A stretch of DNA of 64,000 nucleotides, taken from a bacterium (GTDB lineage: Bacteria; Patescibacteriota; Patescibacteriia; UBA10025). A model generated the notes under the pieces. It saw nothing but the letters and a program-made list of their open reading frames with translations. It was not told the DNA's origin and did no database searches. The translations under genes and the position numbers were made by a program. Positions 97 through 14,166 of this stretch are shown piece by piece (the first letter of the stretch is position 1; the number at the start of each line of letters is the position of its first letter). The stretch covers positions 531,710-595,709 of the forward strand of contig JAKAGM010000001.1 in NCBI GenBank assembly GCA_021815445.1, written 5' to 3'.

Positions 97-1239
97 CTAG
101 CCTTCTATATCCTCTCCCCGCAAATCAGCTAGCTCTTTGAGCAGATCTTTTTCGCGCCTTGAGAGCTGTGCGGGAGTTTCCACCTGCACGGTCACGAGAT
201 GGTCTCCGCGCCCGCGTTTGCGCAGGTGGGTTACACCCTTCCCGTCCAGGCGAAATACTTTGCCCGACTGTGTCCCGTGAGGAATTTTGAGGATTACTTC
301 GCCGTCGAGCGTTTCAATGTGCACCTTAGTGCCAAGCGCCGCCTGTGAGAAGCCGACGGAAACGTCAGAATAGATGTCGTCCCCTTCCCGCCTGAAGTTC
401 GGATCGTTCGGTACTTTGATGCGGACAAAAAGGTCACCGGCCTCGGCTCCCCTGACCCCGGCGGCTCCCTTTCCCGACAGGCGGAGAGATTCCCCGTCGC
501 TGATGCCCGCGGGAATTTTTACGCTTATGGTCTCTTGGCCTGTCGTGCGCCCTTCGCCGTGGCAGACCGTGCATTTCTTCGAAGCTTTGCGCCCTTCGCC
601 GTGGCACTCAGGGCAGACTCCCATTTGTCTGAGGGCGCCGAAGAATGTCTGCTGGATATTTTGCACCTGTCCGCTGCCGCCGCATGTGGCGCACGAGACT
701 ATCTTTGCCCCGGGGTCGGCTCCGCTGCCGCCGCACCGCTTGCAGGTGATTTCTTTTTCTAGGGTGAGAACTTTGTCGGTACCAAAGGCCGCCTCATGCA
801 AAGATACGGTTACGGATATCTCGGCGTCATTGCCGCGGCGCACCTCACTTCGCGCCCGGCCTCTCGACCCGCCCATGCCGAAGATATCGCCGAAAATGTC
901 TCCGAGATCGCCGAAATCAAAATTGGCATTCTCGGTCCTAAACCCCCCGAACGGTCCTCCCCCGCGCGCAAAGTCCTCGGCAGAAAATCCGCCGAATCCG
1001 CCCGGGCCGCCGCCCTGTCGCCGCGCCTGGTCAAATGTCTGCCCGAACTGGTCGTACTGCTGGCGCTTCTCCTTGTTGCTTAGGGTTTGGTAGGCCTCGT
1101 TAATTTCTTTGAACTTTTCCTCGTCGCCGCCGTCCTTGTCAGGATGATGCTCATGCGCAAGCTTGCGAAACGCTTTTTTGATGTCAGCTTCGCTCGCGTC
1201 CTTCGGCACGCCTAAAATGTTATAAAAATCTTTTGCCAT
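97..1239 (-). CDS. dnaJ: Molecular chaperone DnaJ
   Basis: N-terminal J domain with HPD motif (HEHHPDK), Gly/Phe-rich linker, four CxxCxGxG zinc-finger repeats, C-terminal substrate domain. Confidence 0.9.
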   Translation of the reverse strand: MAKDFYNILGVPKDASEADIKKAFRKLAHEHHPDKDGGDEEKFKEINEAYQTLSNKEKRQQYDQFGQTFDQARRQGGGPGGFGGFSAEDFARGGGPFGGFRTENANFDFGDLGDIFGDIFGMGGSRGRARSEVRRGNDAEISVTVSLHEAAFGTDKVLTLEKEITCKRCGGSGADPGAKIVSCATCGGSGQVQNIQQTFFGALRQMGVCPECHGEGRKASKKCTVCHGEGRTTGQETISVKIPAGISDGESLRLSGKGAAGVRGAEAGDLFVRIKVPNDPNFRREGDDIYSDVSVGFSQAALGTKVHIETLDGEVILKIPHGTQSGKVFRLDGKGVTHLRKRGRGDHLVTVQVETPAQLSRREKDLLKELADLRGEDIEG

Positions 1240-1297
1240 AGTGTTGTGTATCTTTTCAGCATGACAGGATACCCCGTATCCAAGCTCCAGTCAAGGC

Positions 1298-2350
1298 CTA
1301 GAGTTCGAGGCGCTCCTTGCTGATCATGACTTTGCCGATGCGGACAAATCTGAACGCAGAAAGGACGCGGTAGACGATAAAAGAGAAAAACTGGATCAGC
1401 GGCTGATAGACAATATCGAATATTTTAAGCACGAAAAAGAGTGAAAGCGCCAGCACCGCCGGCAAAAACTTTTTGTACGGGGCCACATACTTTTCGAGCT
1501 GCTGGTTCACAATTTTTTCCACGATAACTTCCATCCTGTCAGTCCCCGACGCCGTGATGCCGAAGGTGGAGAGAAACTTCGCGCGGGCTTCGTCGGTCAA
1601 CTGCCCCTGCGCGCTGGCTAATCCTTCCTGGATTGATTTCTCTATTTCGGCGGTTCCCGGAAATCCCAGCGTCGTGGTTACCTGCTGTGAAGGTTGGACT
1701 GTCGACTCCCTGATGAACTCATCAAGCGTCATGTCCGGCGAATAGTGGGCGACATAGCGCGGAAGAACTCTGTCCACGGAAACAACGGCAGTCTTTACGA
1801 TACCGCTGAGGAGCCGCTCCGACTCCTGCCGGGTGATAAGGAAGGAATAATAGGTGAATGACACTGAGAGCAGAATGAGCGAAATGGCTATGCCCAATCC
1901 TGCCGGAATCACTTGGCTGACTTTGAAGCTGATGCGAGTCTCCATATCACTCCGGATATTCTTGCGCCAGAGAATGAAAGCCAAAATCATAGCTATAATG
2001 GCGATCATGTTCGAAAGGCTCACGGGGAAAAAAGCGACATGGCTCAGGGCTCCGACAGCCACGATGACGTAAAAAACCAGACTTCGCTGGATAAGCAATG
2101 CTGTCAGACCCACGACGGCAAACATGAGCGCAAAAGCGAACAGAACGAATGCGAACGTCAGGAGCGTGTCGAGACGGAGCGAAAATCCCTCGCCGCTCTG
2201 GAAAATCCTGAAAAACGTAAACCAGAAAAATGCCATCGATGTCACTGTCAGCGCGCTGAGAATGGTAAGTTTATGCAACGGTTGCGGGACCGGTTTTTCT
2301 TTTTGGGCTTGGAGCGCCTGCTCTTCCTGCGTAGGTTTTTCAATTCGCAT
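1298..2350 (-). CDS. Hypothetical integral membrane protein
   Basis: 350 aa ORF with multiple hydrophobic helices at both ends and a soluble central segment; no recognised family. Confidence 0.55.
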   Translation of the reverse strand: MRIEKPTQEEQALQAQKEKPVPQPLHKLTILSALTVTSMAFFWFTFFRIFQSGEGFSLRLDTLLTFAFVLFAFALMFAVVGLTALLIQRSLVFYVIVAVGALSHVAFFPVSLSNMIAIIAMILAFILWRKNIRSDMETRISFKVSQVIPAGLGIAISLILLSVSFTYYSFLITRQESERLLSGIVKTAVVSVDRVLPRYVAHYSPDMTLDEFIRESTVQPSQQVTTTLGFPGTAEIEKSIQEGLASAQGQLTDEARAKFLSTFGITASGTDRMEVIVEKIVNQQLEKYVAPYKKFLPAVLALSLFFVLKIFDIVYQPLIQFFSFIVYRVLSAFRFVRIGKVMISKERLEL

Positions 2351-2548
2351 AAGGATATGTTACTCAGTGTACCATCGCGTCCACCATCAGACAATCATGC
2401 GCAGATCGCATGTTTACCGATTTCTGATTTTGGCAACGTTCTTCCCGATCGGAACAGGTGTGATATCAAACTTCTCTCTATTTAATCAGGTTTATAGGGA
2501 CTTTCTTGAAGCTAGGGAAGTTATTCCCAGCTTATCCACTCTGCGGTC

Positions 2549-2577
2549 TTGACCGGTTTTTCCAGTAAGAGTAGCAT
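2549..2577 (+). promoter_or_regulatory. Sigma70-like promoter (TTGACC-17nt-TAGCAT) in front of a GC-rich non-coding stretch
   Basis: Hexamers read directly, 17 nt spacer; no convincing ORF downstream. Confidence 0.35.
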
Positions 2578-3068
2578 GCTCATTACGTCTTTACGTTCTT
2601 TCCATTCCACGAACTTTGTCGGTGACTATTACCGGCTCGATGCTCACAATGGATGGGGGTGAGAGACTTCTCTCGATCAAACTCTCCGTGAGTTATGACG
2701 CGACAACGTCGCACCCTTTCAAGTCGGAACACCTCGGAAACTTTGACGTTTCCGTGACTCAGGTAGTCGGACCTTTATATGGGAGGCCTGACTGCTGGAA
2801 CATTTCCGGCGTCATCTACTGAGCTCGAGAAAGCGCGATTGCATTTGATGCGGGGATTTGGCCGGGAGGAATCCAGGCCGCAGCCTCCGTGCTGACCCCC
2901 AAGGACCTTACGGTCCGCCCTTGCCCATTGCGGGCAACTGTACCCATCGCCCCAGGGCGATGATATCTGCACTTTGCGCCAGGTTTCCCGACACGGCCCC
3001 AAGATCCTTTGATGACACACCTCCTCATTGAATCGCGGGGCTGTTTTTCTTTGGGTGAAAAAACGCTC

Positions 3069-3096
3069 TTGACTTCATCTGACAGGGCATTATACT
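3069..3096 (+). promoter_or_regulatory. Sigma70-like promoter (TTGACT-16nt-TATACT) for a candidate small RNA
   Basis: Near-consensus -35 and -10 hexamers; about 165 nt downstream is a strong intrinsic terminator. Confidence 0.5.
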
Positions 3097-3102
3097 ATCG
3101 AC

Positions 3103-3271
3103 GTGTTCTTCGGATACTACCCGGCTGGGCAATGAATTCGGGGATTCATCCCACCCGGCGCTACGCGCAATGCTTCTCCGCTTACAAGGAAGGCGAGGAC
3201 GACCAGAGTCCAAAACGGAGTTGCGCACGTAGCAGGGCTCGGCAAATGATACTGCGCCGAGCCTGTTTTTT
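3103..3271 (+). ncRNA. Candidate small non-coding RNA, about 170 nt, identity unknown
   Basis: Bounded by promoter 3069-3096 and terminator 3237-3271; no ORF with an RBS fits inside; convergent with DUF3467 gene. Confidence 0.35.
3237..3271 (+). terminator. Rho-independent terminator (GCTCGGC...GCCGAGC stem plus T6)
   Basis: Perfect 7 bp GC-rich stem followed by TGTTTTTT. Confidence 0.6.
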
Positions 3272-3279
3272 ATATCCCG

Positions 3280-3585
3280 TTATCCGTGGAACCCGATCTC
3301 ACTATTCATCGGGGCCTTTGCGACCTCGATGGTCCCGAAGTTCTTTTCATATTTCTCTATATTATCTTTGAGCGCGCCGAGGACCCGCTTCATATGGCCC
3401 GGCGAGAGGATCACCCGCGCATTGACGATGCCCGCGCGCTGGAGCGGATAGACATTCATAAAATCGAGGACGAATTCCTCCTTGGAATGCGCCACTGACA
3501 TCATGTTCGCATAGATGCCTTTCATCGTGGCGTCGTCTATCTTAATTTGTATCTGCTGCCCTTCGGGGGCTTGCTGTCCGTTCAT
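3280..3585 (-). CDS. DUF3467 family protein
   Basis: About 100 aa; conserved EFVLDF...ILSP.H.KR...AL..N..KYE..FG core typical of DUF3467. Confidence 0.75.
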   Translation of the reverse strand: MNGQQAPEGQQIQIKIDDATMKGIYANMMSVAHSKEEFVLDFMNVYPLQRAGIVNARVILSPGHMKRVLGALKDNIEKYEKNFGTIEVAKAPMNSEIGFHG

Positions 3586-3702
3586 AGTGCGTTGGGATTA
3601 GTGGATAAATGTTAATAATAAACTGCATATTGACATTGGCACCTCATATGCGTAAGCTGTGGTTAATAACATCGCACAAACAGGGAAACGAGGAGGAAGT
3701 CC

Positions 3703-3942
3703 ATGAGGATTTTCATTACAGATGTTGAGGTGTTGGGGACAGAGTTGATAGTCCGCTCAAATTTACGGAGATGGGCGTATCATCTCTCAGACGTCATTTC
3801 CGGCGTGCTTTCTATCGAAGAGATCGTCGAGGATAGCGAGTCCGAGGAATTGATCGTCACGGCAGATGGCGTTAAACTCCGTCTCTATACTTGGAGACAG
3901 GCTGCCCTCGGCGAACGGTCCAAATCCTGCCTCGCCGCGTAG
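3703..3942 (+). CDS. Hypothetical small protein (79 aa)
   Basis: AGGAGGA RBS 7 nt upstream of ATG; followed by terminator at 3973-4004. Confidence 0.5.
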   Translation: MRIFITDVEVLGTELIVRSNLRRWAYHLSDVISGVLSIEEIVEDSESEELIVTADGVKLRLYTWRQAALGERSKSCLAA

Positions 3943-3972
3943 GTCTGACCGACTAACGCAATGTTCCTGCCC

Positions 3973-4004
3973 CCTGCCGCCCCGTTTGACGGCAGGTTTT
4001 TTTA
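3973..4004 (+). terminator. Rho-independent terminator (CCTGCCG...CGGCAGG plus T8)
   Basis: 7 bp stem followed by TTTTTTTT. Confidence 0.6.
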
Positions 4005-4111
4005 TTCATGAGCGCTTGCACATCTTAGTAGTACATGGTAAAGATGACAATGAGTATACGTTAAACGAAAGTAATGCACAATTGTTCTGTCACATGCGGA
4101 GGGAGGGAAGT

Positions 4112-4183
4112 ATGCGGTTCGAGATAGCAAATTGGTGCTTTGATAACACCCGCGGAATTGTCCTTTTGCATCTGAGGGCCTGA
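4112..4183 (+). CDS. Putative 23 aa peptide with strong RBS (MRFEIANWCFDNTRGIVLLHLRA)
   Basis: GGAGGGAGGGAAG directly upstream of ATG; weak terminator-like hairpin plus T-tract follows. Confidence 0.2.
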   Translation: MRFEIANWCFDNTRGIVLLHLRA

Positions 4184-4243
4184 TTAAGCTTTACGGTCAT
4201 TCCAGGCCCCCGGCACACGCTGACGGGTCTTTTCTTTTTTGCA

Positions 4244-4278
4244 TTGACAAAGAGCAAACAACTGCTAGACTGGCGATA
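4244..4278 (+). promoter_or_regulatory. Sigma70-like promoter (TTGACA-17nt-TAGACT) for the small membrane protein gene
   Basis: Hexamers read directly. Confidence 0.4.
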
Positions 4279-4331
4279 TCTGTTAAGAATTGATGAGGAA
4301 TATAATTGCTCATTCGAGGAGGGGTACTAAA

Positions 4332-4493
4332 ATGGAAACGTTCAAATCGTGGCCTGGATGGGCACAGGCGCTGACGGTTATCGTCGGCATCATTCTCGTC
4401 CTGGCTGCGGTGGGCTATCGCTTCATCGAGCTGATGAAACAGATTCCGTCCGAATCAAAGGACGAATCGGCGCAGAGCTCTGCACGAACCTGA
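4332..4493 (+). CDS. Small membrane protein (53 aa, single TM helix)
   Basis: GAGGAGGGG RBS upstream of METFKSW; hydrophobic helix ALTVIVGIILVLAAVGY; ORF track start at 4290 is probably too early. Confidence 0.45.
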   Translation: METFKSWPGWAQALTVIVGIILVLAAVGYRFIELMKQIPSESKDESAQSSART

Positions 4494-4622
4494 TCTTCAT
4501 CGGTCATTCATCCAGATCGCTGACTCCGCACGATACAACTATGTGGAGTCTTTTCTTATAGTGGTAACCCTGTAGGGGTCAAGCAAGCTTGACCCGATTT
4601 TCTAAAAGTCGAAGCTTTGCCC

Positions 4623-4904
4623 CTACTTCTTTCTCGGCCCGCGATACAGGACTTTAAACTTCAACCGGCTCACGTTCTGGTTCTTTTTCGCCTTTGAACC
4701 ATGTGCGCCGATCGCCCACACGTTAATACCCGCTTTGCCTTTTTTCTCGTCTGTGGACGTGACTGCCACGTCGAATTCAACGAACGAACTTGATGATTTG
4801 CTGTCTGTCGTTATCCAAAAGAGATGATTGCCGGCCTTGTTGGCCGCCTCAATACCCTTGGCAATGTTTGTTAATGTCGTGGTGATAAATTGGTCGAGTT
4901 GCAT
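4623..4904 (-). CDS. Hypothetical protein with trypco2-like (trypsin-co-occurring domain 2) signature
   Basis: 93 aa; VEFDVAVTxT...GKAGINVWAIGA...RLKFKV pattern resembles the trypco2 domain seen in conflict systems; preceded by conserved hairpin-pair leader. Confidence 0.5.
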   Translation of the reverse strand: MQLDQFITTTLTNIAKGIEAANKAGNHLFWITTDSKSSSSFVEFDVAVTSTDEKKGKAGINVWAIGAHGSKAKKNQNVSRLKFKVLYRGPRKK

Positions 4905-4919
4905 AATATTCTAGCTTTC

Positions 4920-4968
4920 GCACCCTAGAGAGGGTGCTCTCCTTGTCATGCCGAACTTGATTCGGCAT
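4920..4968. repeat. Hairpin-pair motif copy A (GCACCC-N6-GGGTGC and ATGCCGAA-CTTGA-TTCGGCAT)
   Basis: Perfect inverted repeats read directly; lies in the 5' leader of the minus-strand gene 4623-4904. Confidence 0.7.
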
Positions 4969-4980
4969 CTTTATCAAGCT

Positions 4981-5178
4981 TTAGTTTCCTAGGAACTTCA
5001 AAGCGCCATAGACCAGGAATATCGGCCAGATGATTGCCTTAAGGAATCCAAGCACACCCGCCCAAAAAGTCGCTGCCACGGAAATATAATAAATCGCGGC
5101 GCCGATGAAACCTAACCCATAGACCGCCTCTCCGCCACGCTTTGTAACATTCACGTCCATCATATATGCCATGTACAT
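4981..5178 (-). CDS. Small hydrophobic membrane protein (65 aa)
   Basis: Two predicted TM helices; tightly packed between island genes. Confidence 0.4.
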   Translation of the reverse strand: MYMAYMMDVNVTKRGGEAVYGLGFIGAAIYYISVAATFWAGVLGFLKAIIWPIFLVYGALKFLGN

Positions 5179-5202
5179 TTAATAATTAGCCTTGTCATGC
5201 CC

Positions 5203-5715
5203 TCATTTTACCCTCCCGAGAAAGTAATCATCAATAGCCCGCACGAGCGCCACGGGTTTGGCGTCGAACGACCATTCTTTCTTTTCCCGCTTGGCGTCGT
5301 TCTCGAGTATTAATTGGAACCTGTTCGACTTGGTGAGGATGCATTTCGGCGGAGTGGCGTGAAAATGCCACGGCGTGCCATCTTGGACGAACTGTTTCAC
5401 CATCTCAAGCGCTTCATGGTCAGCTGGCCCGAAATCCCCCTGTGCCTGCAAGTATGCGCGTCCTTCAAGCTCCTCGCGGAGTTCTTTCGTACTCCGGCAG
5501 TAGATATTCCCCTGCGGCGTCTCAAGCAAAATAATCTCCTTGCCGGTGTCATTCATGAAGCATTCGGGCGAAAGGCAATGATGATGCCACGCCGTGCCCA
5601 TGCGGACGGTCCTTTGCTCAGCGTCGTCGTATTCTACGTATTTTGCGTCTTCGGATATCATATATTCTGTACTTTCTTTCGCACCCTCGAAAGAGTGCTC
5701 TTCTTTATCCACCAT
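5203..5715 (-). CDS. Hypothetical protein with duplicated G-T-x-W-H-x-H ... C motif (WHH-like); likely true start at 5661
   Basis: Internal repeat GTAWHHHCLSPEC and GTPWHFHATPPKC; the first 18 codons overlap a conserved leader hairpin, so the ATG at 5661 is favoured. Confidence 0.5.
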   Translation of the reverse strand: MVDKEEHSFEGAKESTEYMISEDAKYVEYDDAEQRTVRMGTAWHHHCLSPECFMNDTGKEIILLETPQGNIYCRSTKELREELEGRAYLQAQGDFGPADHEALEMVKQFVQDGTPWHFHATPPKCILTKSNRFQLILENDAKREKKEWSFDAKPVALVRAIDDYFLGRVK

Positions 5716-5798
5716 CCTGAACTTGATTCAGGATCCCGAATTAAATACCTTGGCAGATTACCTCGGGATGCCGAATCAAGTTCGGCATGGGGACAGCT
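5681..5798. repeat. Hairpin-pair motif copy B (GCACCC hairpin, CCTGAA-CTTGA-TTCAGG, ATGCCGAA-TCAAG-TTCGGCAT)
   Basis: Inverted repeats read directly; same stems as copy A. Confidence 0.7.
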
Positions 5799-5839
5799 AA
5801 TTATCTCCGAGCGTGGCCCGCCGCGGCCGCGCTCGCCTG

Positions 5840-6286
5840 TTAAAGTCCCAGTACTTTCTCCAATATCGGATGTGAAAAATACGCCAGTACATCAAAGTCC
5901 TTATCTGCCAATTCAATCATTTCATGGCCCGGCCGTTCAATAAGTTTGAACCCCGGCTTGTCGAGGTATGCTTTCTTAAACGCCGGGTAATCACTCACCG
6001 TGAAGTCCGCGTCTCCTCGCTCTGGCCGGTTCGGATCCGGTTTCCGTATTTTTACAATTCGCAACGGCCCGGCAACGGTTTCAAACGACTCAACGAGATA
6101 CACGTTACCCATTTTGGTACTCTGAATAACCTTGCCTATTTTCGCAACCATCGCTTCGAGCCTTTGATACTCATCATCTGATTGAGAAAAAATACAGGCA
6201 TAATTCACCGGCGCGTTTTTCTGGTCCGTGTGGAGGTCCTTGAGCTTGCGCGCTTGGGAAACAATGTTCTGTACAATTGAAATCAT
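5840..6286 (-). CDS. Hypothetical protein (148 aa), immediately downstream of SIR2-like gene
   Basis: ORF with ordinary composition; no recognised family. Confidence 0.5.
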   Translation of the reverse strand: MISIVQNIVSQARKLKDLHTDQKNAPVNYACIFSQSDDEYQRLEAMVAKIGKVIQSTKMGNVYLVESFETVAGPLRIVKIRKPDPNRPERGDADFTVSDYPAFKKAYLDKPGFKLIERPGHEMIELADKDFDVLAYFSHPILEKVLGL

Positions 6287-6357
6287 GTTTTTCGTGTTCT
6301 TTCTTTGAATGTTGTATCCTCAGATATCATATGGTTGTTGTTGGGGCATATTTACTT

Positions 6358-7449
6358 TCAAATTTTATTGTAATTTTCTACAAATGTTTTAAAACCATTT
6401 TTAAAAGATGTATTCGATGGATCGAAGAATACCTTCCCTTTTTGGAGTTTTTTTGGATGTCGTTTAATCACTCTTTCCATTATTTCTGTTGCGCCTTCAA
6501 CACTATTGCTCACCACGTGGAGTATCGGGGGTTTCGAGGTTGTATACTTTTCTATCCAGTCATGTATTAGCTCATCATTTGCTTGATAGCCAATCAAGAA
6601 TATCTGACTAACATTTGGAAAGAGTGTTTTAGCTCCCTCTTCTATTTTTTTACCTAACTCGGGAATATGTGAATAAATTTTTTCGGATAGTGGGAGAAAT
6701 ATTAACGGCTGGAAGTAATCCCATCCAAAATCTTGGGAATATATTGAGTCTCGCTTTTGTAAAAAGTTATGACCAGGATCGTAATATTTATAATCAGTTA
6801 GAGCCAGCCCACTACCCTTAAATAGATTAACTGAGGCAAACCGATATCTATTTTGCCAGTCATTATCGGCGCTTTTACCTGGAATGCCACCATCTTCTTG
6901 TCTTTTCTGACCGAGCCAGTTAACTGATCCGTGCGGCTTTAGTATTTTTTGCGTTATGTATGAATCGACATTGTCTAATGGCCTGCTCCAAACTTTAGTA
7001 AAAGCAATATCAAACAGGGTGTCATAATTAAAATTAATGAACGCATGGTGAATGTCTTTCTGCGTTTCTTCGCGAAGTATTATTAAGAGCTTTTTATAAA
7101 GGCTATTATTCCCTGGATGTGTCGAAATCGTTTGAAACATCCAACGTAAGTAATGTGCAAACTTTCCAAGGTCGCCTCTGAGAGAGATCGCGGCCTCCGC
7201 GGTATATCCCTCTCCACCTTGATTTGAGTACTTCCATAATTCACTTAGCCAATCTTCTAAACTACGATCTTTTTTGGTTCTTTCAAATGTGGCACGAAGG
7301 TAGTTAATATCAAGGCTAAGCTCCTCGGCATATTCTTCATAAACAGAATTTAATAATTCATTTGCAAGAGGGGCCTGATATTTATTGTTATCTACATTTT
7401 TATTTGTAGATCCTCTAGAGGCACCCGCACCGAAGATAAAGAGTTTCAT
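6358..7449 (-). CDS. SIR2-like domain protein (SIR2_2 / defence-associated sirtuin family), putative NAD+-consuming effector
   Basis: N-terminal FIFGAGASRG Rossmann motif, NYDTLFD (catalytic Asn) and KPHGSVNW (catalytic His), third strand IFLIGYQANDE; gene is AT-rich (about 38% GC) against 50-55% surroundings. Confidence 0.8.
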   Translation of the reverse strand: MKLFIFGAGASRGSTNKNVDNNKYQAPLANELLNSVYEEYAEELSLDINYLRATFERTKKDRSLEDWLSELWKYSNQGGEGYTAEAAISLRGDLGKFAHYLRWMFQTISTHPGNNSLYKKLLIILREETQKDIHHAFINFNYDTLFDIAFTKVWSRPLDNVDSYITQKILKPHGSVNWLGQKRQEDGGIPGKSADNDWQNRYRFASVNLFKGSGLALTDYKYYDPGHNFLQKRDSIYSQDFGWDYFQPLIFLPLSEKIYSHIPELGKKIEEGAKTLFPNVSQIFLIGYQANDELIHDWIEKYTTSKPPILHVVSNSVEGATEIMERVIKRHPKKLQKGKVFFDPSNTSFKNGFKTFVENYNKI

Positions 7450-7492
7450 AATTACTACCGCCCCCGAGTTTTCCCGGAGGCGTTTTAATTAC

Positions 7493-9424
7493 CTATTTAC
7501 TTTTCGCAGACCCTGAGGTTCCTGAAGGGTTGACCTCCTCATACTGGGCGTCCACGGGTCCCTTGTCATCCTTTTTCTGCTCTGCTCCTTTTGCCTGGCC
7601 TTGGGGACTGCCTTGAGGGGGCTGCTGGCCCTGGTACATCGCCTGGCCTATCTTCTGGATAGCCTGTGAGAGTTCGTCGTGGGCCTTCTTTATTGCCGCG
7701 GCATCGTCGCCGTCTTTCACTTTTTTGAGCGCATCAATCTTTTCTTGCACCTCTTTCTTGGTCTTGTCGTCTACTTTGCTTCCGGCGTCTTTGAGTGACT
7801 TCTCGGACGTATAGACGAGGGATTCTGCCATGTTGCGCATATCAATTGTCTCTTTCTTTTTCTTGTCATCTACGGCGTGCGCCGCGGCTTCCTGCTTCAT
7901 CTTTTCCACTTCGTCTTTTGACAAGCCTGAGGACGCGGTGATAGTGATGGACTGTTCTTTGCTTGTGGCCTTGTCTTTCGCTTTCACATTCAGTATGCCG
8001 TTCGCGTCAATGTCGAAGCTGACCTCTACCTGCGGCACTCCACGGGGCGCCGGCGGAATGCCCGAGAGCATAAACCGTCCGAGCGACTTGTTGTCACCTG
8101 CCATGGGGCGTTCGCCCTGCAGGACGTGGATTTCCACTGACGTCTGGTTGTCCGCGGCTGTGGAGAATACTTGCGACTTGGATGTCGGGATAGTGGTGTT
8201 GCGGTCAATCAACGGTGTCATAACACTGCCGAGCGTCTCTAACCCTAGCGTGAGCGGCGTGACATCAAGCAAGAGAATGTCTTTTACATCTCCTTGAAGA
8301 ACGCCCGCTTGGACAGCCGCGCCGACTGCAACTACTTCGTCAGGATTCACGCCGAGGTGCGGTTTCCTGCCAAAGAACTTCTCGACTGTCTGTTGAACTA
8401 AGGGCATACGAGTCATACCGCCGACCATAACTACTTCCTGGATGTCGGACGTCTTGAGTCCTGCGTCATCCAGCGCTTTTTGCGTCGGGCCCATGGTCTT
8501 TTGCACCAGGTCCCCTACCAGATCTTCCAACTTAGCGCGGGACATCTTGAGGAGCAAGTGCTTCGGTCCTGATGCGTCAGAGGTGATGAACGGCTGGTTG
8601 ATTTCAGTTTCCATCTGCGTCGAGAGCTCCATCTTTGCCTTTTCAGCTGACTCCTTGAGACGCTGTAAGGCGAGCTCATCCTTGCTGAGGTCGATGCCTT
8701 GATCCTTTTTGAACTCTTCAGCAATCCAATGAATAATCACCTGGTCAAAGTCATCACCGCCCAAGTGCGTGTCGCCGTTGGTCGCTTTGACTTCCACCGT
8801 GTCTTTTGAAACTTCGAGGATGGAAATGTCGAATGTACCGCCGCCGAGGTCGTAGACGGCTATCTTTTCATCCTTTTTCTTGTCGAAACCGTAGGCAAGC
8901 GCCGCCGCTGTCGGCTCGTTGATGATGCGGCGGACTTTGAGACCGGCGATTTCACCGGCGTCTTTCGTCGCCTGGCGCTGTGAGTCGTCGAAATACGCGG
9001 GGACAGTGATGACAGCTTCTTCGATCTTTTCGCCGAGCTTGTCCTCTGCGTCAGCTTTGAGCTTCGAGAGCACCATCGCAGAGATTTCCTGCGGCGAGTA
9101 TTCCTTGCCGCCCATCTCTACTTTGACGCCCTGCCCCGACTGGACCATCTTGTAGGGCATGAGCTTGAGGTCTCGCTGAACCTCGGCGTCGTCGAAGCGT
9201 CGTCCGATCAGGCGCTTCACTGAAAAAATAGTGTTCTTTGGGTTGACGACGGCCTGGCGCTTGGCCGACATGCCGACGATGCGTTCTCCTGTCTTGGAGA
9301 CGGCGACGACTGACGGAGTCGTCCTGTTGCCGTCTTTGTTTTCGATGACCTTCGGTTCGCCGCCCTCCATGACTGCCATGGCTGAGTTGGTCGTACCGAG
9401 GTCTATTCCGAGAATTTTTGACAT
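7493..9424 (-). CDS. dnaK: Molecular chaperone DnaK (Hsp70)
   Basis: [16 protein letters not shown] and other Hsp70 signatures; 643 aa. Confidence 0.95.
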
Positions 9425-9655
9425 AATGGTGAGTTGAGAATTAGTAATTGATTATGGGAATGAATCTGCCTGCCGTACGCCGCATTTTTCCGCATGTGGC
9501 CGCGAACCTTGATGCCGCCGCGCCGGGTATGGGCCGCCACCCAGAATTGCTTCCTTGAGCGGGCCGGCGGAGCTTTGTGCTCGTCGCCGCCGGAGTATTT
9601 CCGGCCTTTCGCGCGTTCTTTTTTCCATGAACCTGGCGTAACCATATATTTTTAC

Positions 9656-9997
9656 TTAAAACATATCGAGGAAATTATCCTGGGAATTGAGCCGGGCGTG
9701 AATCTCCAGCACCTGGTCGTCTCCGAGCATTTCATCCTCCGTGTAGCGTAGGACCTCATTTTCATTCAAATCGGTAGGCATGGTGACAAAATTCAGCCGC
9801 CCCTGTCCGAAAGAAATTGATGAGACGGAGCCCGTCTGGCACTGCTGGCAGCGGATGTAGAGCAACGTATTGCCTTCACGTTCCTCCAGAACCTGCAGGT
9901 GGACGAGGTCGAACCTCTGCCCGCAGATCGAGCAAAACGCTTCTGCTTTGATGATGTCGTGCCGCGGTCCGATCGGAAATTGTGGTCGAATAGGCAT
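9656..9997 (-). CDS. Zinc-ribbon hypothetical protein inside heat-shock operon
   Basis: CSICGQ ... CQQCQ pairs; start moved to MPIRPQF (track ORF starts at 10048). Confidence 0.45.
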   Translation of the reverse strand: MPIRPQFPIGPRHDIIKAEAFCSICGQRFDLVHLQVLEEREGNTLLYIRCQQCQTGSVSSISFGQGRLNFVTMPTDLNENEVLRYTEDEMLGDDQVLEIHARLNSQDNFLDMF

Positions 9998-10072
9998 AAT
10001 GATTGATTCACGAGTCTGGCACGGTTTTTTGGCCGTGGTCAGGCCCATGCCCCAATCGGGGCTGGGAAGTAA

Positions 10073-10477
10073 TTACTTGGATATTTTGACAGGGACTTTT
10101 TTGGGCTTTACCTCCTCCGCTTTCGGAATAGTGACTTTCATCAAACCGTTATGGAAGTGCGCCGAAGCCTTGTCAGCCTGTACGTGGGTCGGGAGAGCGA
10201 TGCTCCTATAGAAACTCCCGGACCTGACTTCCTTGCGGTAGTAATTCTTCTCATCCACTTCACTCTTTTTTTCCATGTTGCCTTCGATCTTGAGAACGTT
10301 GTCCTCGACGGTAATGCTAACTTTCTCCGGGTCCACGCCCGCAAGCGCAGATTCTACGTAGACATTGTCTTTGTCTTCATAGACATCCATCGCCGGGACG
10401 AAAGACTGGGGTATGCCCTCAAAAAACCTGTCAAAGGCGTCAAGGTCTGTCCATGGATTCCATCGTATAATTGCCAT
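10073..10477 (-). CDS. Hsp20 / alpha-crystallin family small heat-shock protein
   Basis: Alpha-crystallin domain pattern (DVYEDKDNVYVESALAGV ... GLMKVTIPK). Confidence 0.85.
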   Translation of the reverse strand: MAIIRWNPWTDLDAFDRFFEGIPQSFVPAMDVYEDKDNVYVESALAGVDPEKVSITVEDNVLKIEGNMEKKSEVDEKNYYRKEVRSGSFYRSIALPTHVQADKASAHFHNGLMKVTIPKAEEVKPKKVPVKISK

Positions 10478-10516
10478 ACTATGTACACCTCCTTTCGTTG
10501 GTAAGGTTACGCGTTT

Positions 10517-10663
10517 TTACGAGCAACAATCTCCGTGCTTGCCGCACATGCACTCATGTTTTTCGCCGTGTTCTTGAGACTTACCATCTTTGCAGCAGTC
10601 ATCATCGGAACCTTGGTGAGAGTGCTTTTTATCTGCCGGGCTCTGCTTGTGTGTATTGTCCAT
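10517..10663 (-). CDS. Putative 48 aa Cys/His-rich metal-binding peptide (MDNTHKQSPADKKHSHQGSDDDCCKDGKSQEHGEKHECMCGKHGDCCS)
   Basis: Not in ORF track (under 60 aa); AGGAAA RBS 5 nt before ATG; 7 Cys and 6 His; between grpE and hsp20 on the same strand. Confidence 0.35.
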   Translation of the reverse strand: MDNTHKQSPADKKHSHQGSDDDCCKDGKSQEHGEKHECMCGKHGDCCS

Positions 10664-10691
10664 AGTTTTCCTGAAAAATTAATGAAGATGA

Positions 10692-11222
10692 TTATTCAGC
10701 TATTTTGACCTTTGCCGCCTGGAGGGTTTTGCCGTGGTATATGTAGCCGGGCTGTATTTCCTCGAGAATCTCCCCGTGCTCCTTGCCTTCAATCTTTTCC
10801 TTTGCCACCGCTTCATGGAGCTCAGGGTCAAATGTTTTTCCGGCTGTCTCTATCTCGTGGATATTGATGTTTGAAAGCAGCGTCTTGAATTCGGTGGCGA
10901 TATGCTCTATACCTTTCATCCACTGGTGCGACTTCTGCTCCTGCGGGGCGTGCTTCAGCGCGAGCTTCAGGTGGTTATAGATGGGTAGCAGTTCGATAAT
11001 AAGCGCCGCATTGGCAAACTGGACAATCTCCTGCTCCCGTTTCGCGGAATCTTTCTTGAGATTCAGGTAATCGGCTTTCGCCCGCTTCCAACCGTTCAGA
11101 TATTCTTCCGCAATCTTTTTCGCTTTTACGAGTTCATCAGTTGGACGCTCGGGCTTCTTCGGGGCGTCGTGAACTTTTTCGGGTTGAGCTGGAGCCGGCT
11201 TGGGCTGGACGTCTTCAGGCAT
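10692..11222 (-). CDS. grpE: Nucleotide exchange factor GrpE
   Basis: GrpE coiled-coil and C-terminal beta domain; overlaps hrcA stop. Confidence 0.85.
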   Translation of the reverse strand: MPEDVQPKPAPAQPEKVHDAPKKPERPTDELVKAKKIAEEYLNGWKRAKADYLNLKKDSAKREQEIVQFANAALIIELLPIYNHLKLALKHAPQEQKSHQWMKGIEHIATEFKTLLSNINIHEIETAGKTFDPELHEAVAKEKIEGKEHGEILEEIQPGYIYHGKTLQAAKVKIAE

Positions 11223-11934
11223 GGGGGTTCTGTTGTGAAGTTTCTAAAAGCTCCTGGGCAAACCTGAGACGGCATGAGTTCGCCGCGTAATCCATCCGCA
11301 TGGGTCCCACAATAGCCATCACAGAGTTTTTTCCGTCATGAGTATACTGCATCATCATGGTACCGCATTCTTTGCCAAACGGATTTTCGCTCCCGATCAG
11401 CGTTTCGATTTCACGTTTCACATTTGGGAAAATATCGTGGACAATGTCATCGAGGTGGTCGATGACTTCTGTGATATGCGAAATGATATTGAAGTCCCGG
11501 AACTCCGGCTGAGAAAAAAGACATGAGATGCCGGTGTAATAAATGTCATCGGGTGAAAAAGCCACGACGACGGCCTCCTGTGAAAGCTCGGCAAGCGCTT
11601 TTGCCAGCCGTTTTGTCTTGGCTTCATAGTCCGGTGCATCGGCAACGGCATCGGTAAGAGCGCCTTTCTCTTTTGTCGCTAACTCTTTTTCATGGACGAG
11701 ATTATCGAGATAATACTTCCAGCCCTTTTCGGTGGGAATTCTGCCAGCTGAGGTATATTGGTGGGTTAAATATCCCTCTTTTTCAAGCTCCATCATGTCG
11801 TTACGAACGGTGGCCGGAGATACACCAAGCTGGTACTTATCCACAAGCAGCTTAGACCCTACTGCGCCGCAGTTCCTGATGTGTTCATTGATTATTGCGC
11901 TAAATAAAGCGATTTTTCTGTCATTCGTACTCAT
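11215..11934 (-). CDS. hrcA: Heat-inducible transcription repressor HrcA
   Basis: N-terminal winged-helix (SKLLVDKYQLGVSPATVRNDMMELEKEGYL), HrcA C-terminal domain; CIRCE immediately upstream. Confidence 0.85.
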   Translation of the reverse strand: MSTNDRKIALFSAIINEHIRNCGAVGSKLLVDKYQLGVSPATVRNDMMELEKEGYLTHQYTSAGRIPTEKGWKYYLDNLVHEKELATKEKGALTDAVADAPDYEAKTKRLAKALAELSQEAVVVAFSPDDIYYTGISCLFSQPEFRDFNIISHITEVIDHLDDIVHDIFPNVKREIETLIGSENPFGKECGTMMMQYTHDGKNSVMAIVGPMRMDYAANSCRLRFAQELLETSQQNPHA

Positions 11935-11966
11935 AGTTTGTTCGCTCAGACCTAATTATAAACTGG

Positions 11967-11993
11967 TTAGCACTCTATGGTCAAGAGTGCTAA
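11967..11993 (-). promoter_or_regulatory. CIRCE operator (TTAGCACTC-N9-GAGTGCTAA), HrcA binding site
   Basis: Perfect match to CIRCE consensus, located 33 nt upstream of hrcA start. Confidence 0.85.
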
Positions 11994-12225
11994 TTCGTTG
12001 AAATACCAAATTATCTGCCCAAAGAAGAGTCCGAAGTCCTTTCACAACAGCCTAAAGATCTTTTCTCTCCATCCTGAGCGACCCTGAGCACAGTCGAAGG
12101 GGAGCCGAAGGATCCCCTGGATATTCGTGACATCGAGTATTTCTGCAGAACCTTCGTCACCCAAACCTGAACTGGCCCGGAGGGCAAACTTCCCTTTCAA
12201 GTATACTCGTATGGTCCTTTCAAAC

Positions 12226-13290
12226 TCACTGCTTATCGGGCTGGGACAAATTGGTGGCCTGCCCGTTCCCATTTCCGTTTGCCGGCAAGGTTGGCTTGCT
12301 AAAGATAGCCTGGCCGATCCTGATACCGAAGTGAGAAAGGAAAAGGAATCCGATGATAACTTTAAGGAAATCCACTGAGCGGAAGATGAGACTGAAAGCT
12401 ACTCCGCTCTCCGGGCTGAACCCGATGACTGAAAAAATTAATGCCTCCCCCGTCTCCGTACTGCCGAAGGAACCCGGAATGGGGAGGAGAAAGGTGATAA
12501 TCGTCAGCGTCGAGACGAGGACGACATGGAGCAATGTGGCATGGAGCCCGATAGATATCATGATAAACCACATGGCAAGCAGCGTCATCAACCCGCCAAG
12601 CACGGAGAGTCCGAGACCCTGCCAAAGCGCCTTGCGGTCACGGTTAAAGAATCTGATGATGATAAGCTCAAGCTTGCCTATCTTGTCCATGAATTTCGCG
12701 ACGAACGCAAGCCTATGGAGCTGCAAGAATCTGATGATGGCCCCGAAGAAATCCCGCGAGCGAAGAGTTTTGTAATAAAAGAGGATGATGAGGAAAATAA
12801 ACGTCAGGCCCACAATAAGCAAAATGGCTATGCTTTTCCATGAAAGACTGAATTTCATCAGCACGTAAAATATGGAAAAAAGCAAGAACGGCAGCCCGAA
12901 ACTGAAATCCATCATTTTATCTATAATGACGGAGGCAAGCCCGTCCGAAAACGGTACTCCCGCGTCTTTTTTGAGCACGAGAGCGCGGAAGCTCTCCCCG
13001 AAGCCGGCATTGGGCGAGGGCGTGAAATAATCCACCGCATACCCGACGATCTTGGAGGGAAAAAGCTTCGACATGGGCAGGTCGTGTCCTTCACTCTTGA
13101 GAATTATTTTCCAGCGGTACTGGGTGATGATGAACGCGAGGAAATACAAGAAGAGAATGACAAACCATCTCGCGAAAGAAAAGCCGGTGATCGTTTGCCA
13201 AATGCTGGTAACGCCTACTTTATAGATGACGCCGATGAATAACGCGATACCGATGACGCCGGAGACGATAAAAAAGATGATTTTTTTCAC
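12226..13290 (-). CDS. Flippase-like / lysylphosphatidylglycerol-synthase TM-region family membrane protein (UPF0104)
   Basis: 354 aa polytopic membrane protein with conserved basic patches typical of UPF0104 family. Confidence 0.55.
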   Translation of the reverse strand: MKKIIFFIVSGVIGIALFIGVIYKVGVTSIWQTITGFSFARWFVILFLYFLAFIITQYRWKIILKSEGHDLPMSKLFPSKIVGYAVDYFTPSPNAGFGESFRALVLKKDAGVPFSDGLASVIIDKMMDFSFGLPFLLFSIFYVLMKFSLSWKSIAILLIVGLTFIFLIILFYYKTLRSRDFFGAIIRFLQLHRLAFVAKFMDKIGKLELIIIRFFNRDRKALWQGLGLSVLGGLMTLLAMWFIMISIGLHATLLHVVLVSTLTIITFLLPIPGSFGSTETGEALIFSVIGFSPESGVAFSLIFRSVDFLKVIIGFLFLSHFGIRIGQAIFSKPTLPANGNGNGQATNLSQPDKQ

Positions 13291-13359
13291 GAGAGGAAAA
13301 GCTAAAAAAAGAGAGTGTTTATCCTCTCGATATCATAGCATATCGGGCCTTTTTTTCAA

Positions 13360-14166
13360 TCATTCATTAGGCCAGACGACAATCATTGCTTTCGCGCCCG
13401 TGGTAATGTCCCCGCCTTCCACCCAGTCATGGATGGCATTGTAGAGTACGTCGGGTTTGTACTGGTATTGCTCACCCTTTCGGGTGCCGGGATCGTTGGT
13501 GATTATCATATCTTTGGTCCATCCGCGAACCACGAGCATGTGGTAGATGGGCCCTGGCGACTTGAAATTCGGATTGCCGAGCAAACGTCCTGCAGTAGGA
13601 ATAATAACAGGCCTCCCCTGGGCAACCTCGCGTTTAATGTCATCAATGGTTATCCCATACTTTACATCAACACGTTTGTAGCCCCAGAGTCCTTTGATAA
13701 CATTGGCTGTCTGTTGGGCTGTAGTATCTTTATAAAATCCTAATGTCGCATTTTCGTAATCAACGATACGTTGAAGTTCCTGCGCAGCAATATCGTTTGT
13801 AAAAGTCTTGTGCTGCCAGTAGTAGTGCACAATAAGCGATGCCGCTTCTTCACAGGATTCCTCGTCCTGCGCCGTCCATTTCGCGTATGGCGACTGTGTG
13901 GTAAACGGAACCGCGAGGTTAAATGTCTCCGGGAGCGGTTTCTCGACTTGGGTGTTAACGAGGGTATTGGTGTTCACCGAGTTTGTTGCTGAATTAACTG
14001 TGGGCGTATCATGCTGAGTATTTTGCAGCTCGTCAAACGTAACTGCGGGTACGTCTTTTTGGAAAAGTTTGTCGATGCGAGCCTTAATTCCGATGCGGTG
14101 TTGGTAACCGAAGACGGCCGCGGCTGCAGCGAGGATAAATAATGAGATGAGAAGTTTGCGTTTCAT
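13360..14166 (-). CDS. Secreted C39-like/papain-fold cysteine peptidase domain protein
   Basis: Signal/anchor MKRKLLISLFILAAAAA; C-terminal domain with SCEEAASLIV (Cys) and GPIYHMLVVRGW (His); paralogous to C-terminus of next gene. Confidence 0.6.
   Translation of the reverse strand: MKRKLLISLFILAAAAAVFGYQHRIGIKARIDKLFQKDVPAVTFDELQNTQHDTPTVNSATNSVNTNTLVNTQVEKPLPETFNLAVPFTTQSPYAKWTAQDEESCEEAASLIVHYYWQHKTFTNDIAAQELQRIVDYENATLGFYKDTTAQQTANVIKGLWGYKRVDVKYGITIDDIKREVAQGRPVIIPTAGRLLGNPNFKSPGPIYHMLVVRGWTKDMIITNDPGTRKGEQYQYKPDVLYNAIHDWVEGGDITTGAKAMIVVWPNE

Follow-up and report, generated by a model that had tools for sequence, protein, structure and literature searches.

A solo SIR2-like gene in the post-dnaK slot of a Patescibacteria heat-shock locus

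SIR2-domain effectors that deplete NAD+ rank among the most common means by which bacteria counter phages. In the systems with which the gene studied here was compared (SIR2-HerA, ThsA, DSR, SPARSA, and Avs5), the enzyme is controlled by a partner or by a fused sensor. The family described below presents the reverse case: its members are minimal proteins of ~340 amino acids, a conserved partner is absent, and the structurally nearest Sir2 is inert without HerA. What might such a protein do on its own, encoded directly downstream of dnaK? Its members come mostly from episymbiotic bacteria of ultra-small size, and little is known of the immune repertoire of these organisms. If active, the protein would reveal infection sensing and self-restraint by a bare SIR2 domain, and the catalogue of compact defence genes would gain one from the Candidate Phyla Radiation (CPR). 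We found no paper linking SIR2 with Patescibacteria; SIR2 is unmentioned in an aquifer defensome paper and a metagenomic selection paper, and orphan Sir2 proteins are not discussed in a Sir2-HerA classification paper.

Gene, motifs, and fold of the solo sirtuin

The window (the whole 64-kb stretch of a Patescibacteria genome that was analysed) contains a previously unannotated gene with dnaK 43 bp upstream. Its features, all on the minus strand, are as follows (invariance refers to a 58-sequence family alignment):

6358..7449, minus strand: solo SIR2-like (SIRim-type) coding sequence, ATG start, 363-aa ORF
7417..7431, minus strand: codons of G7-A-G-A-S11, Rossmann dinucleotide-binding loop after strand 1 (S11 in 57/58 sequences; G7, A8, G9, and A10 invariant)
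7060..7347, minus strand: codons of aa 35-130, all-helical small (variable) domain inserted after strand 1 (helices from the model)
7021..7032, minus strand: codons of F140-N141-Y142-D143, with the predicted catalytic Asn and Asp (all four invariant, 58/58)
6916..6939, minus strand: codons of K171-P-H173-G-S-V-N-W178, with the predicted catalytic His (K171, H173, G174, S175, and N177 invariant)
6679..6693, minus strand: codons of P253-L-S-E-K257, with a family-specific Pro and Lys (P253 and K257 invariant, 58/58)
6574..6591, minus strand: codons of G287-Y-Q-A-N-D292 at the end of strand 282-286 (G287, Y288, and D292 invariant)

The 363-aa ORF proposed in the initial annotation was confirmed, and M1 is common to 55 of the 58 aligned homologs, so the start fits the family. 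The four motif regions named there were all located (GAGAS at aa 7-11, FNYD at 140-143, KPHGSVNW at 171-178, and GYQAND at 287-292), and their key residues are invariant across the 58 sequences. The stretch IFLIGYQAND, described in the same annotation as the third strand, is indeed the third conserved motif block but corresponds to the sixth of eight strands in the model. No equivalent of P253 or K257 was identified among characterised relatives.

The AlphaFold2 (AF2) model of the protein is confident (pLDDT 93.4) and lists 8 strands, with helices of the small domain at aa 35-42, 48-58, 64-77, 84-110, and 116-129; Foldseek agrees on the fold. The central sheet of SIRim proteins usually has seven or more strands, and that of sirtuins exactly six (preprint 10.1101/2024.09.18.613514). 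The model shows a three-layer Rossmann fold with more than six strands and a helical insert after strand 1; a Zn-binding Cys tetrad is absent, and the G7AGA10 pocket together with N141, D143, and H173 is invariant, the last three residues being matched to Paenibacillus PsSIR2 by sequence alignment. The protein has no cysteine at all, the family median is one, and the 58-sequence alignment lacks a conserved Cys column. As had been claimed, the whole protein is a single SIR2-type domain, starting at residue 1; no SLOG, Macro, APAZ, HerA, or any other extra domain was found in it with Pfam, PADLOC, or the model.

In the profile alignment, N141-Y142-D143 match PsSIR2 N163-Y164-D165 residue for residue, H173 corresponds to PsSIR2 H212, and a second, weak stretch aligns GYQAND with GYSYKD. 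N163 and D165 have been named putative catalytic residues of PsSIR2, and the PsSIR2 small domain (aa 53-130), the equivalent of the helical domain described here, autoinhibits that protein (PMC11472057). By analogy, the small domain of the solo sirtuin (aa 35-130) may have a regulatory role. F33 is near-invariant in the family, is replaced by Leu in the subclade of the window (F33L), and may line the nicotinamide pocket, judging from its position after strand 1.

Direct searches with the single protein gave fainter signals. The Pfam check on SIR2_2 (PF13289) did return a match, covering aa 136-178 only (E 9e-4), but its 19.8 bits lie under the gathering cut-off of 24.5; 45 of the 58 family members match at E<=0.01 (best 1.7e-7), and several second-tier relatives exceed the gathering threshold. 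PADLOC SIR2 matches were weak as well (E ~1e-5). It is thus the family profile and the structure, and not a direct HMM call, that place the protein in SIR2_2. A PDB search with the single sequence produced a chance match only (ADP-dependent phosphofructokinase, E 0.6); the sole match of the family profile was the SIR2-HerA Sir2 (PsSIR2). NCBIfam returned no match for the protein. Together, the 58-sequence alignment, the PsSIR2 profile, the AF2 model, and Foldseek support the proposed layout: a stand-alone, defence-type (SIR2_2/SIRim-like) sirtuin fold with an N/D/H catalytic set.

Relation to known SIR2 systems and distribution of the family

The closest structural relative is the Sir2 subunit of SIR2-HerA (Nezha), for example PsSIR2 (PDB 8w9l) or Escherichia coli Sir2 (8j4u, 8su9). 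It is of similar size (360-400 aa), is bilobed, with a Rossmann large domain and a helical small domain, carries an NxD...H catalytic set that aligns with ours, and likewise lacks a Zn site. Identity, however, is only 14-17%, and although a Sir2 subunit of the matching structural type is present here, an adjacent HerA-type ATPase gene is not: there is no HerA nearby or within 64 kb, the neighbours being dnaK and a 148-aa VOC-fold gene. PsSIR2 forms a dodecamer and is inactive without HerA (PMC11472057). Characterised bacterial relatives in this clade are all defence NADases, and Sir2 alone is autoinhibited (PMC11472057; preprint 10.1101/2024.09.18.613514).

Vertebrate FAM118A/B (SIRanc) are also stand-alone, Zn-free SIR2_2-type sirtuins of similar size. 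FAM118B models span residues 28-325 and show a seven-stranded central sheet with conserved N163 and H206; either paralog by itself processes NAD weakly, interaction between FAM118B and FAM118A raises the activity markedly, and filament-deficient mutants lose it (PMC12700824). These proteins nevertheless form a vertebrate-specific clade, with ThsA as the HHpred-nearest protein, whereas for the family studied here it is the SIR2-HerA Sir2.

Other systems differ more in architecture. ThsA (Thoeris) carries a fused SLOG or Macro domain and is accompanied by a gene for the TIR-domain protein ThsB, whereas our protein is single-domain and has no TIR gene beside it. In DSR1/DSR2 an N-terminal SIR2 domain precedes a sensor region of >600 aa that spans the middle and the C-terminus, in contrast to 363 aa that are all SIR2. 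SIR2-APAZ/pAgo (SPARSA) combines APAZ with an adjacent pAgo, neither of which was detected with the sirtuin, and matches to Aga_SIR2 were weak and confined to second-tier relatives; the STAND module fused in Avs5 SIR2-STAND is likewise missing. Canonical deacylases (CobB, Sir2-Af1, SIRT1-7) have a Zn tetrad and six strands, unlike the Cys-free, eight-stranded protein described here, whose insertions are larger (aa 182-245). Abortive infection by AbiH depends on a single gene, whose product is roughly comparable in size. In the SIR2 tree, AbiH is placed with the SIRim (immunity) proteins (preprint 10.1101/2024.09.18.613514). No AbiH match was obtained for the sirtuin in Pfam or PADLOC (E<=1 in each) or for 58 relatives in Pfam.

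The sirtuin belongs to an uncharacterised family, found mainly in Patescibacteria, of 171 homologs (~95 clusters at 50% identity), all of them 330-390 aa long (~340-aa solo proteins). It is rare and patchy, with 66 loci among 185,579 species genomes. No recurrent neighbour family was found within 5 genes at 19 core loci or within 3 genes at 48 second-tier loci. Among 127 neighbour proteins from 18 loci, no Pfam or PADLOC family occurred more than twice, HerA was not found, and no recognised defence island was apparent; the neighbours are mostly housekeeping genes, and their PADLOC matches are generic helicases only. At the locus itself, neither HerA nor another known defence system was found among the 43 ORFs of the window, and no TIR gene was detected among these ORFs or the flanking slot genes scanned. 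PHROGs gave no match for the sirtuin or any slot gene, and a viral contig scan revealed no relatives.

The post-dnaK slot, its age, and its transcription

The gene lies at one end of a variable slot that follows the heat-shock operon:

3586..7492, minus strand: variable slot between dnaK and DUF3467 (backbone conserved, content differs)
5840..6286, minus strand: 148-aa neighbour, YecM-like VOC-fold protein (CPR-wide family, at least 795 members)
7459..7482, minus strand: GC-rich hairpin, 10-bp stem, AAAA loop, no U-tract, CGCCTCCGGG-AAAA-CTCGGGGGCG
7493..9424, minus strand: dnaK (HSP70), the conserved gene that closes the heat-shock operon upstream of the sirtuin
9656..11934, minus strand: block of co-oriented genes upstream of dnaK
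9656-10048, minus strand: Zn-ribbon gene, co-oriented, upstream of dnaK
10073-10477, minus strand: hsp20, co-oriented, upstream of dnaK
10692-11222, minus strand: grpE, co-oriented, upstream of dnaK
11215-11934, minus strand: hrcA, co-oriented, upstream of dnaK
11967..11993, no strand assigned: perfect CIRCE operator, TTAGCACTC-N9-GAGTGCTAA, just upstream of hrcA

The backbone dnaK-[slot]-DUF3467-membrane protein-dnaJ is kept in related loci, and the slot contents differ. In the window, the slot holds the sirtuin gene, genes for 148-aa, 170-aa, and 65-aa proteins, Trypco2, and small ORFs; in the sister genome L002 it also contains Fic, two NUDIX genes, and GIY-YIG, and in other genomes a Schlafen/AlbA_2 protein, a PADLOC PDC-S11 candidate (1.3e-15), and a weakly TIR-effector-like protein. 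The sirtuin occupies it only in the sister pair formed by the window genome and L002, out of ~37 related heat-shock loci, and none of the 35 other loci examined (0/35) holds the gene. The slot thus appears to be a lineage-specific hotspot for different, foreign-looking, often AT-rich, defence-like genes. No tRNA was found within positions 1-13000, no direct repeats flank the sirtuin gene, and no integrase or transposase was recognised among the window ORFs scanned.

The sirtuin gene has a GC content of 0.373 and a GC3 of 0.324, compared with a GC3 of 0.52-0.71 for neighbour genes. The initial annotation, which estimated ~38% GC, was right on this point, and the sliding-window calculation placed the gene at the very minimum: it is the lowest-GC 1092-bp stretch of the whole 64-kb window (mean 0.502, sd 0.032), ~4 sd below the mean. 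It also ranks last in codon-adaptation score among the 26 window genes scored. The recent acquisition that had been read from this composition is not supported. In the nearest sister genome, L002 (DnaK 82%, GrpE 54%, and HrcA 43% identical; sisters in 71/100 bootstraps of the chaperone tree), an equally AT-rich ortholog (GC3 0.30) occupies the same site with 54% identity, a value like that of GrpE. Since the ortholog sits at the same position, the insertion predates this deep split; the sirtuin entered the slot before the divergence from L002, has descended vertically since, and is an old resident. Low GC is a trait of the whole family, in which the gene is AT-rich relative to the host at 18 of 19 loci. 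A gene may therefore stay far from the base composition of its host through a deep vertical history, which calls for caution in equating low GC with recent transfer.

Two neighbours were considered as partners and rejected. The 148-aa protein, put forward as a candidate, is not tied to the sirtuin: its family is CPR-wide (at least 795 members), occurs elsewhere without the sirtuin, and is absent beside the L002 ortholog. At several loci, an unannotated gene of ~190 aa lies directly upstream of the sirtuin, and in L002 a 190-aa gene, equally AT-rich (GC3 0.35), separates it from dnaK; the ~190-aa proteins of L002 and of two further loci, L006 and L010, share no detectable similarity with one another and do not form a conserved partner.

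The strong hairpin noticed between dnaK and the sirtuin is real and is not followed by a U-tract. It begins 10 nt past the dnaK stop and ends 9 nt short of the sirtuin ATG, and the predicted fold of the surrounding 81 nt has an energy of -26.8 kcal/mol (z = -4.2), a stability reached by 0 of 200 shuffles. Its 3' arm (GGGGGCG) overlies the expected position of the sirtuin ribosome-binding site. It is not, however, a feature of the sirtuin gene. An equivalent GC-rich hairpin follows dnaK in most related slot-bearing genomes, whatever gene comes next, and the one seen here accordingly belongs to the 3' end of dnaK. A repeated element was ruled out, since the hairpin occurs only once in the window. 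An Rfam scan of positions 2000-13000 gave no element or thermometer match, the only signal being a sub-threshold chance miRNA match at a different hairpin.

The CIRCE operator has 0 mismatches; the window contains one such site, against a chance expectation of 0.06. No sigma-70-like promoter was found in the gap between dnaK and the ATG, with the proviso that this consensus may not suit Patescibacteria promoters. The 43 bp upstream leave no promoter-sized space, so low-level read-through from the heat-shock operon under CIRCE/HrcA control is the probable source of sirtuin transcripts.

Candidate functions

We hypothesize, with somewhat better than even confidence, that the protein is a self-contained NAD+-consuming abortive-infection effector, an accessory cargo of the hotspot inherited vertically since the split from L002. 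NAD+ would occupy a cleft with the Rossmann domain (GAGAS loop, GYxxxD) on one side and the small helical domain on the other, and the nicotinamide-ribose bond would be cut using N141, D143, and H173. Before a trigger the enzyme would be inactive, probably through the small domain, as in its closest structural relative; once triggered, it would exhaust NAD+ and so bring the cell to a halt, as a defence by abortive infection. Since no partner or sensor domain is present, sensing and activation must reside in the sirtuin itself, which might, for instance, bind a phage factor directly or be activated in a concentration- or oligomerisation-dependent step. The defence role is plausible on circumstantial grounds. 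The closest structural relative needs HerA, so the solo protein may also be inactive or do something else.

A more speculative extension, which we regard as improbable as a whole, treats the post-dnaK region as a stress-coupled defence hotspot of this Patescibacteria lineage. Promoterless, AT-rich single-gene defences (the solo sirtuin, the Schlafen-like protein, the PDC-S11 candidate, and the TIR-like protein) would insert right after the U-less, leaky hairpin and would depend for their transcription on read-through out of the CIRCE/HrcA heat-shock operon. The proteotoxic stress of a phage takeover would then raise the dose of these cargo defences, and the sirtuin would be switched on by concentration-dependent self-assembly, without a separate sensor; rare codons and lasting AT-richness in its coding sequence would hold this lethal NADase at a low basal dose.

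A role outside defence would likewise agree with the long vertical retention of the gene beside dnaK in two genomes. The protein could be an NAD-dependent enzyme tied to the heat-shock/proteostasis operon, either a protein ADP-ribosyltransferase or an NAD-sensing regulator, which might modify chaperones or their clients under stress. The 43-bp distance from dnaK, the perfect CIRCE of the operon, the position kept in two deeply diverged genomes, the missing space for an own promoter, and the mostly housekeeping neighbours of the family elsewhere all agree with such an enzyme. We nevertheless consider it unlikely: the gene accompanies dnaK only in the sister pair among the ~37 related heat-shock loci, other members occur in unrelated contexts with no chaperone link, and AT-richness and patchy distribution are typical of accessory genes. 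The Zn module for protein-substrate binding in canonical sirtuins is also missing (preprint 10.1101/2024.09.18.613514).

Quite unlikely, too, is that the sirtuin is half of a multi-gene system whose partner is distal (e.g., a HerA-like ATPase) or a small adjacent gene such as the L002 190-aa gene. The inactivity of the closest structural relatives without HerA speaks for it, as do that AT-rich gene between dnaK and the sirtuin in L002, the ~190-aa genes directly upstream at several loci, and the fact that inspection covered 64 kb of an 877-kb contig. Against this stand the mutual dissimilarity of the ~190-aa proteins, the lack of such a gene in the window, where the gap to dnaK is 43 bp, the missing recurrent neighbour family at the 18 core and the second-tier loci, the absence of HerA from the window, and the housekeeping-type, CPR-wide nature of the 148-aa family.

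NAD+-degrading toxins are common in bacterial conflicts. A toxin serving conflicts other than anti-phage defence, as part of an addiction-type or selfish element or as an effector of the episymbiont against its host bacterium, would suit this general background, the AT-rich accessory character of the gene, and the presence of Fic and Trypco2 genes in the same hotspot; Patescibacteria are moreover described in the literature as host-attached episymbionts. We hold this to be very doubtful, as neither a secretion-associated domain or extension nor a conserved adjacent immunity or antitoxin gene was detected, mobile-element genes, tRNAs, and flanking repeats are absent at the gene, and homologs are absent from viral contigs and PHROGs.

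It is extremely unlikely that the abortive-infection effector proposed here is instead a decaying or catalytically dead remnant kept by chance: the lowest codon adaptation of the window, the sub-threshold Pfam score, and F33L could be taken that way, but the ORF is intact and full length with all invariant family residues other than F33, the model is confident and compact, and the deep split has left all motifs intact in the 54%-identity ortholog, implying purifying selection.

A SIR2-fold protein with an intact NAD pocket

Just past dnaK lies a gene whose product has the SIR2 fold, with NAD pocket and catalytic set both intact and strongly conserved; its architecture is solo, and the gene behaves as an accessory gene in a hotspot. 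The 363-aa open reading frame reported in the initial annotation is present (6358-7449, minus strand), as are its motifs GAGAS (aa 7-11), FNYD (140-143), KPHGSVNW (171-178), and GYQAND (287-292). Judged by sequence models, direct HMM evidence for the identity of the protein is thin: it reaches 19.8 bits against Pfam SIR2_2, under the 24.5 cut-off and over aa 136-178 only, its matches to PADLOC 'SIR2' models are at about 1e-5, and NCBIfam gives no match. A homology search returned 171 relatives, nearly all stand-alone, ~340 aa long, and unannotated or 'hypothetical'. In a 58-sequence alignment, G7 A8 G9 A10, F140 N141 Y142 D143, K171 H173 G174 S175 N177, and G287 Y288 D292 are invariant, together with the family-specific residues E65, Y118, Y164, P253, and K257; SIR2_2 matches 45 of the 58 members at E<=0.01.

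The sole meaningful PDB sequence match of the family profile is PsSIR2, the Sir2 subunit of the Paenibacillus SIR2-HerA (Nezha) anti-phage system, in which N163, Y164, D165, and H212 coincide with N141, Y142, D143, and H173; N163, D165, and H212 are its putative catalytic residues (PMC11472057). The protein contains no cysteine, the family has no conserved cysteine column, and the structural model lists eight strands, the first of which is followed by a helical insert (aa 35-130). Absence of cysteine, strand number, and the helical insert are traits separating immunity-type SIR2 domains (SIRim) from classical sirtuins (10.1101/2024.09.18.613514). The fold and active-site reading therefore has very good support, which comes from profile and structure and not from a Pfam match of the protein itself.

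On structural criteria the protein fits the SIR2_2/SIRim branch. It does not have the architecture of ThsA, DSR, SPARSA, Avs5, or canonical sirtuins, and no AbiH model matches it. In its working it would most resemble the Sir2 protein of SIR2-HerA, but HerA, which defines that system, is missing. Solo SIRim proteins are already known, namely FAM118 (PMC12700824), with AbiH also listed as sirim (10.1101/2024.09.18.613514), so the family does not stand for a new type of system. It is a CPR-centred clade, uncharacterised and without a partner, and its closest characterised relative is partner-dependent.

Distribution, genomic neighbours, and proposed mechanism

When 1.84 billion representatives were searched with the family profile, ~95 core clusters scored above 280 bits, each single-domain and of 330-390 aa. 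Below these, scores fall steeply and a much larger second tier follows (1,936 matches in all, E<=1e-10). Second-tier relatives are mostly solo too (320-470 aa), and several score near the SIR2_2 threshold. An unannotated N-terminal extension of ~100 aa occurs in second-tier loci L029, L036, L037, L044, L055, and L056 (proteins of 444-487 aa), a subgroup that is mostly Bacteroidia/Bacteroidota-type. Among 185,579 species (one genome per species), family loci total 66. Full-length core members come mainly from Patescibacteria (Woyke-, Kerfeld-, Levyi-, Parcu-, Sacchari-, Roizman-, Gottesman-, and Peribacteria), with a few in MAGs of Chloroflexi and Zixibacteria and in MAGs labelled 'Gammaproteobacteria'; the viral contigs scanned contained no member.

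The sirtuin has no conserved partner. Clustering of neighbours up to five genes away at 19 core loci gave no family common to independent loci; the 127 proteins encoded near 18 loci included no Pfam family more than twice, and PADLOC returned generic helicase matches only. Second-tier loci likewise have no conserved partner, and PADLOC detected neither HerA nor another established system among 43 ORFs of the window. One of these ORFs strongly matches the phage-defence candidate family PDC-S48 (6.3e-35). Separately, three loci, of which two are near-identical, have near the sirtuin homolog a pair of small adjacent genes (about 82-88 and 112-119 aa) that may be toxin-antitoxin-like (L014 8421-9023, L023 11210-11804, and L024 3748-4345).

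By analogy with characterised relatives, the protein would cleave NAD+ at the nicotinamide-ribose bond and would normally be off, probably through its helical small domain; that of PsSIR2 occludes the pocket (PMC11472057). Once triggered, it would deplete NAD+ and thereby abort infection. Since no sensor exists, activation would have to be intrinsic: the protein might bind a phage product directly, or activation might depend on dose or assembly. The solo FAM118 sirtuins are reported to work in the latter way: they assemble head to tail into filaments, and filament-deficient variants lose their effect on cellular NAD (PMC12700824). From these relatives, NAD+-consuming chemistry appears likely, while the prospect of an anti-phage role is evenly balanced.

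A variable slot behind the heat-shock operon

The contig carrying the window (877 kb, Patescibacteria) has hrcA-grpE-hsp20-(Zn-ribbon)-dnaK upstream of the sirtuin gene.

11967-11993: CIRCE operator just upstream of hrcA, TTAGCACTC-N9-GAGTGCTAA, 0 mismatches
7459-7482, minus strand: hairpin CGCCTCCGGG-AAAA-CTCGGGGGCG, 10 nt past the dnaK stop and 9 nt ahead of the sirtuin ATG
3586-7492, minus strand: slot between dnaK and DUF3467
4623-4904, minus strand: Trypco2 gene (PF19631, 'trypsin-co-occurring domain 2'), 93 aa
4915-4969, 5676-5735, 5767-5789: copies of a ~55-nt hairpin-containing element
5712-5790: 79-nt palindrome

The perfect CIRCE before hrcA marks the five genes as an HrcA-controlled heat-shock operon. 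The hairpin and its lack of a U-tract are as initially described; it is unique in the window, and its context folds far better than shuffled sequences (z = -4.2). Most relatives with the slot have a strong GC-rich hairpin within ~10-20 nt of the dnaK stop (a stem of 9-15 bp, in general with a tetraloop, and in most cases no U-tract), conserved in position and not in sequence; it was found in the 70 nt after dnaK in the sister genome's locus (L002) and in L077, L083, L084, L087, L098, L102, L103, L123, L127, L137, and L149. No such hairpin occurs where dnaJ directly follows dnaK. The hairpin thus belongs to the 3' end of dnaK, with cargo placed just beyond. Cargo genes often begin 9-26 nt past the hairpin, too close for a promoter to fit between, and ahead of the sirtuin gene the scan detected no sigma-70-like promoter. 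From this layout we infer that the sirtuin is expressed by read-through from the HrcA-controlled operon.

With GrpE as anchor, 80 related heat-shock loci were recovered. Nearer relatives share the backbone dnaK-[slot]-DUF3467-membrane protein-dnaJ, and in more distant ones dnaJ abuts dnaK. Across a Patescibacteria lineage, slot cargo (window and loci L077-L156) varies by genome and is often strikingly AT-rich (GC3 0.15-0.24); the sirtuin family occurs in 0 of 35 informative heat-shock loci.

Cargo of the slot after dnaK
Schlafen/AlbA_2 protein: 414 aa, GC3 0.24 (adjoining dnaK, 0.78)
PADLOC candidate PDC-S11 match: 354 aa, 1.3e-15
Weak TIR-effector match: 252 aa, GC3 0.15
DUF218
Several membrane proteins, unannotated
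L002: PNPOx, two NUDIX genes, Fic, GIY-YIG

In L002, an equally AT-rich orphan gene (9398-9970, 190 aa, GC3 0.35) precedes the sirtuin gene, and PNPOx-like, NUDIX, NUDIX, and Fic genes follow it (11261-14940). NUDIX enzymes can use ADP-ribose as a substrate, so a functional link of these genes to NAD+ breakdown products is conceivable. The Trypco2 gene has a counterpart at the equivalent place in L002 (58% identity), and in the window no adjacent gene is trypsin-like. The ~55-nt element, repeated at 83-87% identity in or near intergenic spacers of the slot, brackets the slot's 170-aa and 65-aa genes; it may mark the boundary of a cassette or serve as a terminator module. Its 23-nt arm at 4947-4969 is exactly complementary to 5767-5789, and the palindrome corresponds to a sub-threshold Rfam 'mir-605' match (5717-5786).

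Base composition and history of the sirtuin gene

The AT-richness noted initially was borne out: GC is 0.373 and GC3 0.324, against GC3 0.52-0.71 in neighbouring genes, which makes this the lowest-GC gene-sized stretch of the 64-kb window (~4 sd under the mean), and its codon-adaptation score is the lowest among 26 genes scored. The recent acquisition read from this composition is not supported. The closest homolog (P0002, 54% identity) lies in L002, on a contig of 1.08 Mb, at the same position behind hrcA-grpE-hsp20-dnaK. In a neighbour-joining tree (concatenated HrcA+GrpE+DnaK, 32 taxa) the two genomes are each other's nearest neighbours, and 71/100 bootstraps make them sisters. Between the window and L002, identity is 82% for DnaK, 57% for Hsp20, 54% for GrpE, 58% for Trypco2, 43% for HrcA, and 54% for the sirtuin. 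Most simply, the gene was inserted once, in the common ancestor of the two genomes, and has been inherited vertically since.

GC3 is near 0.30 in both sirtuin orthologs versus roughly 0.65 in their genomes, and GC lies below the flanks in 18 of 19 family members (differences -0.02 to -0.19). Synonymous sites should be saturated at this depth, so that neutral amelioration would be expected to have removed the signal. Candidate explanations for its retention are selection for poor codons that limit a toxic enzyme and recurrent replacement out of an AT-rich shared gene pool.

A second low-GC patch of the window (30495-33361, minus strand) comprises two adjacent genes, encoding proteins of 537 aa (GC3 0.47) and 413 aa (GC3 0.36). 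In both products the motif KPKGFIP stands at the N-terminus or close to it, with a hydrophobic stretch behind it, and the two appear to be surface or membrane paralogs.
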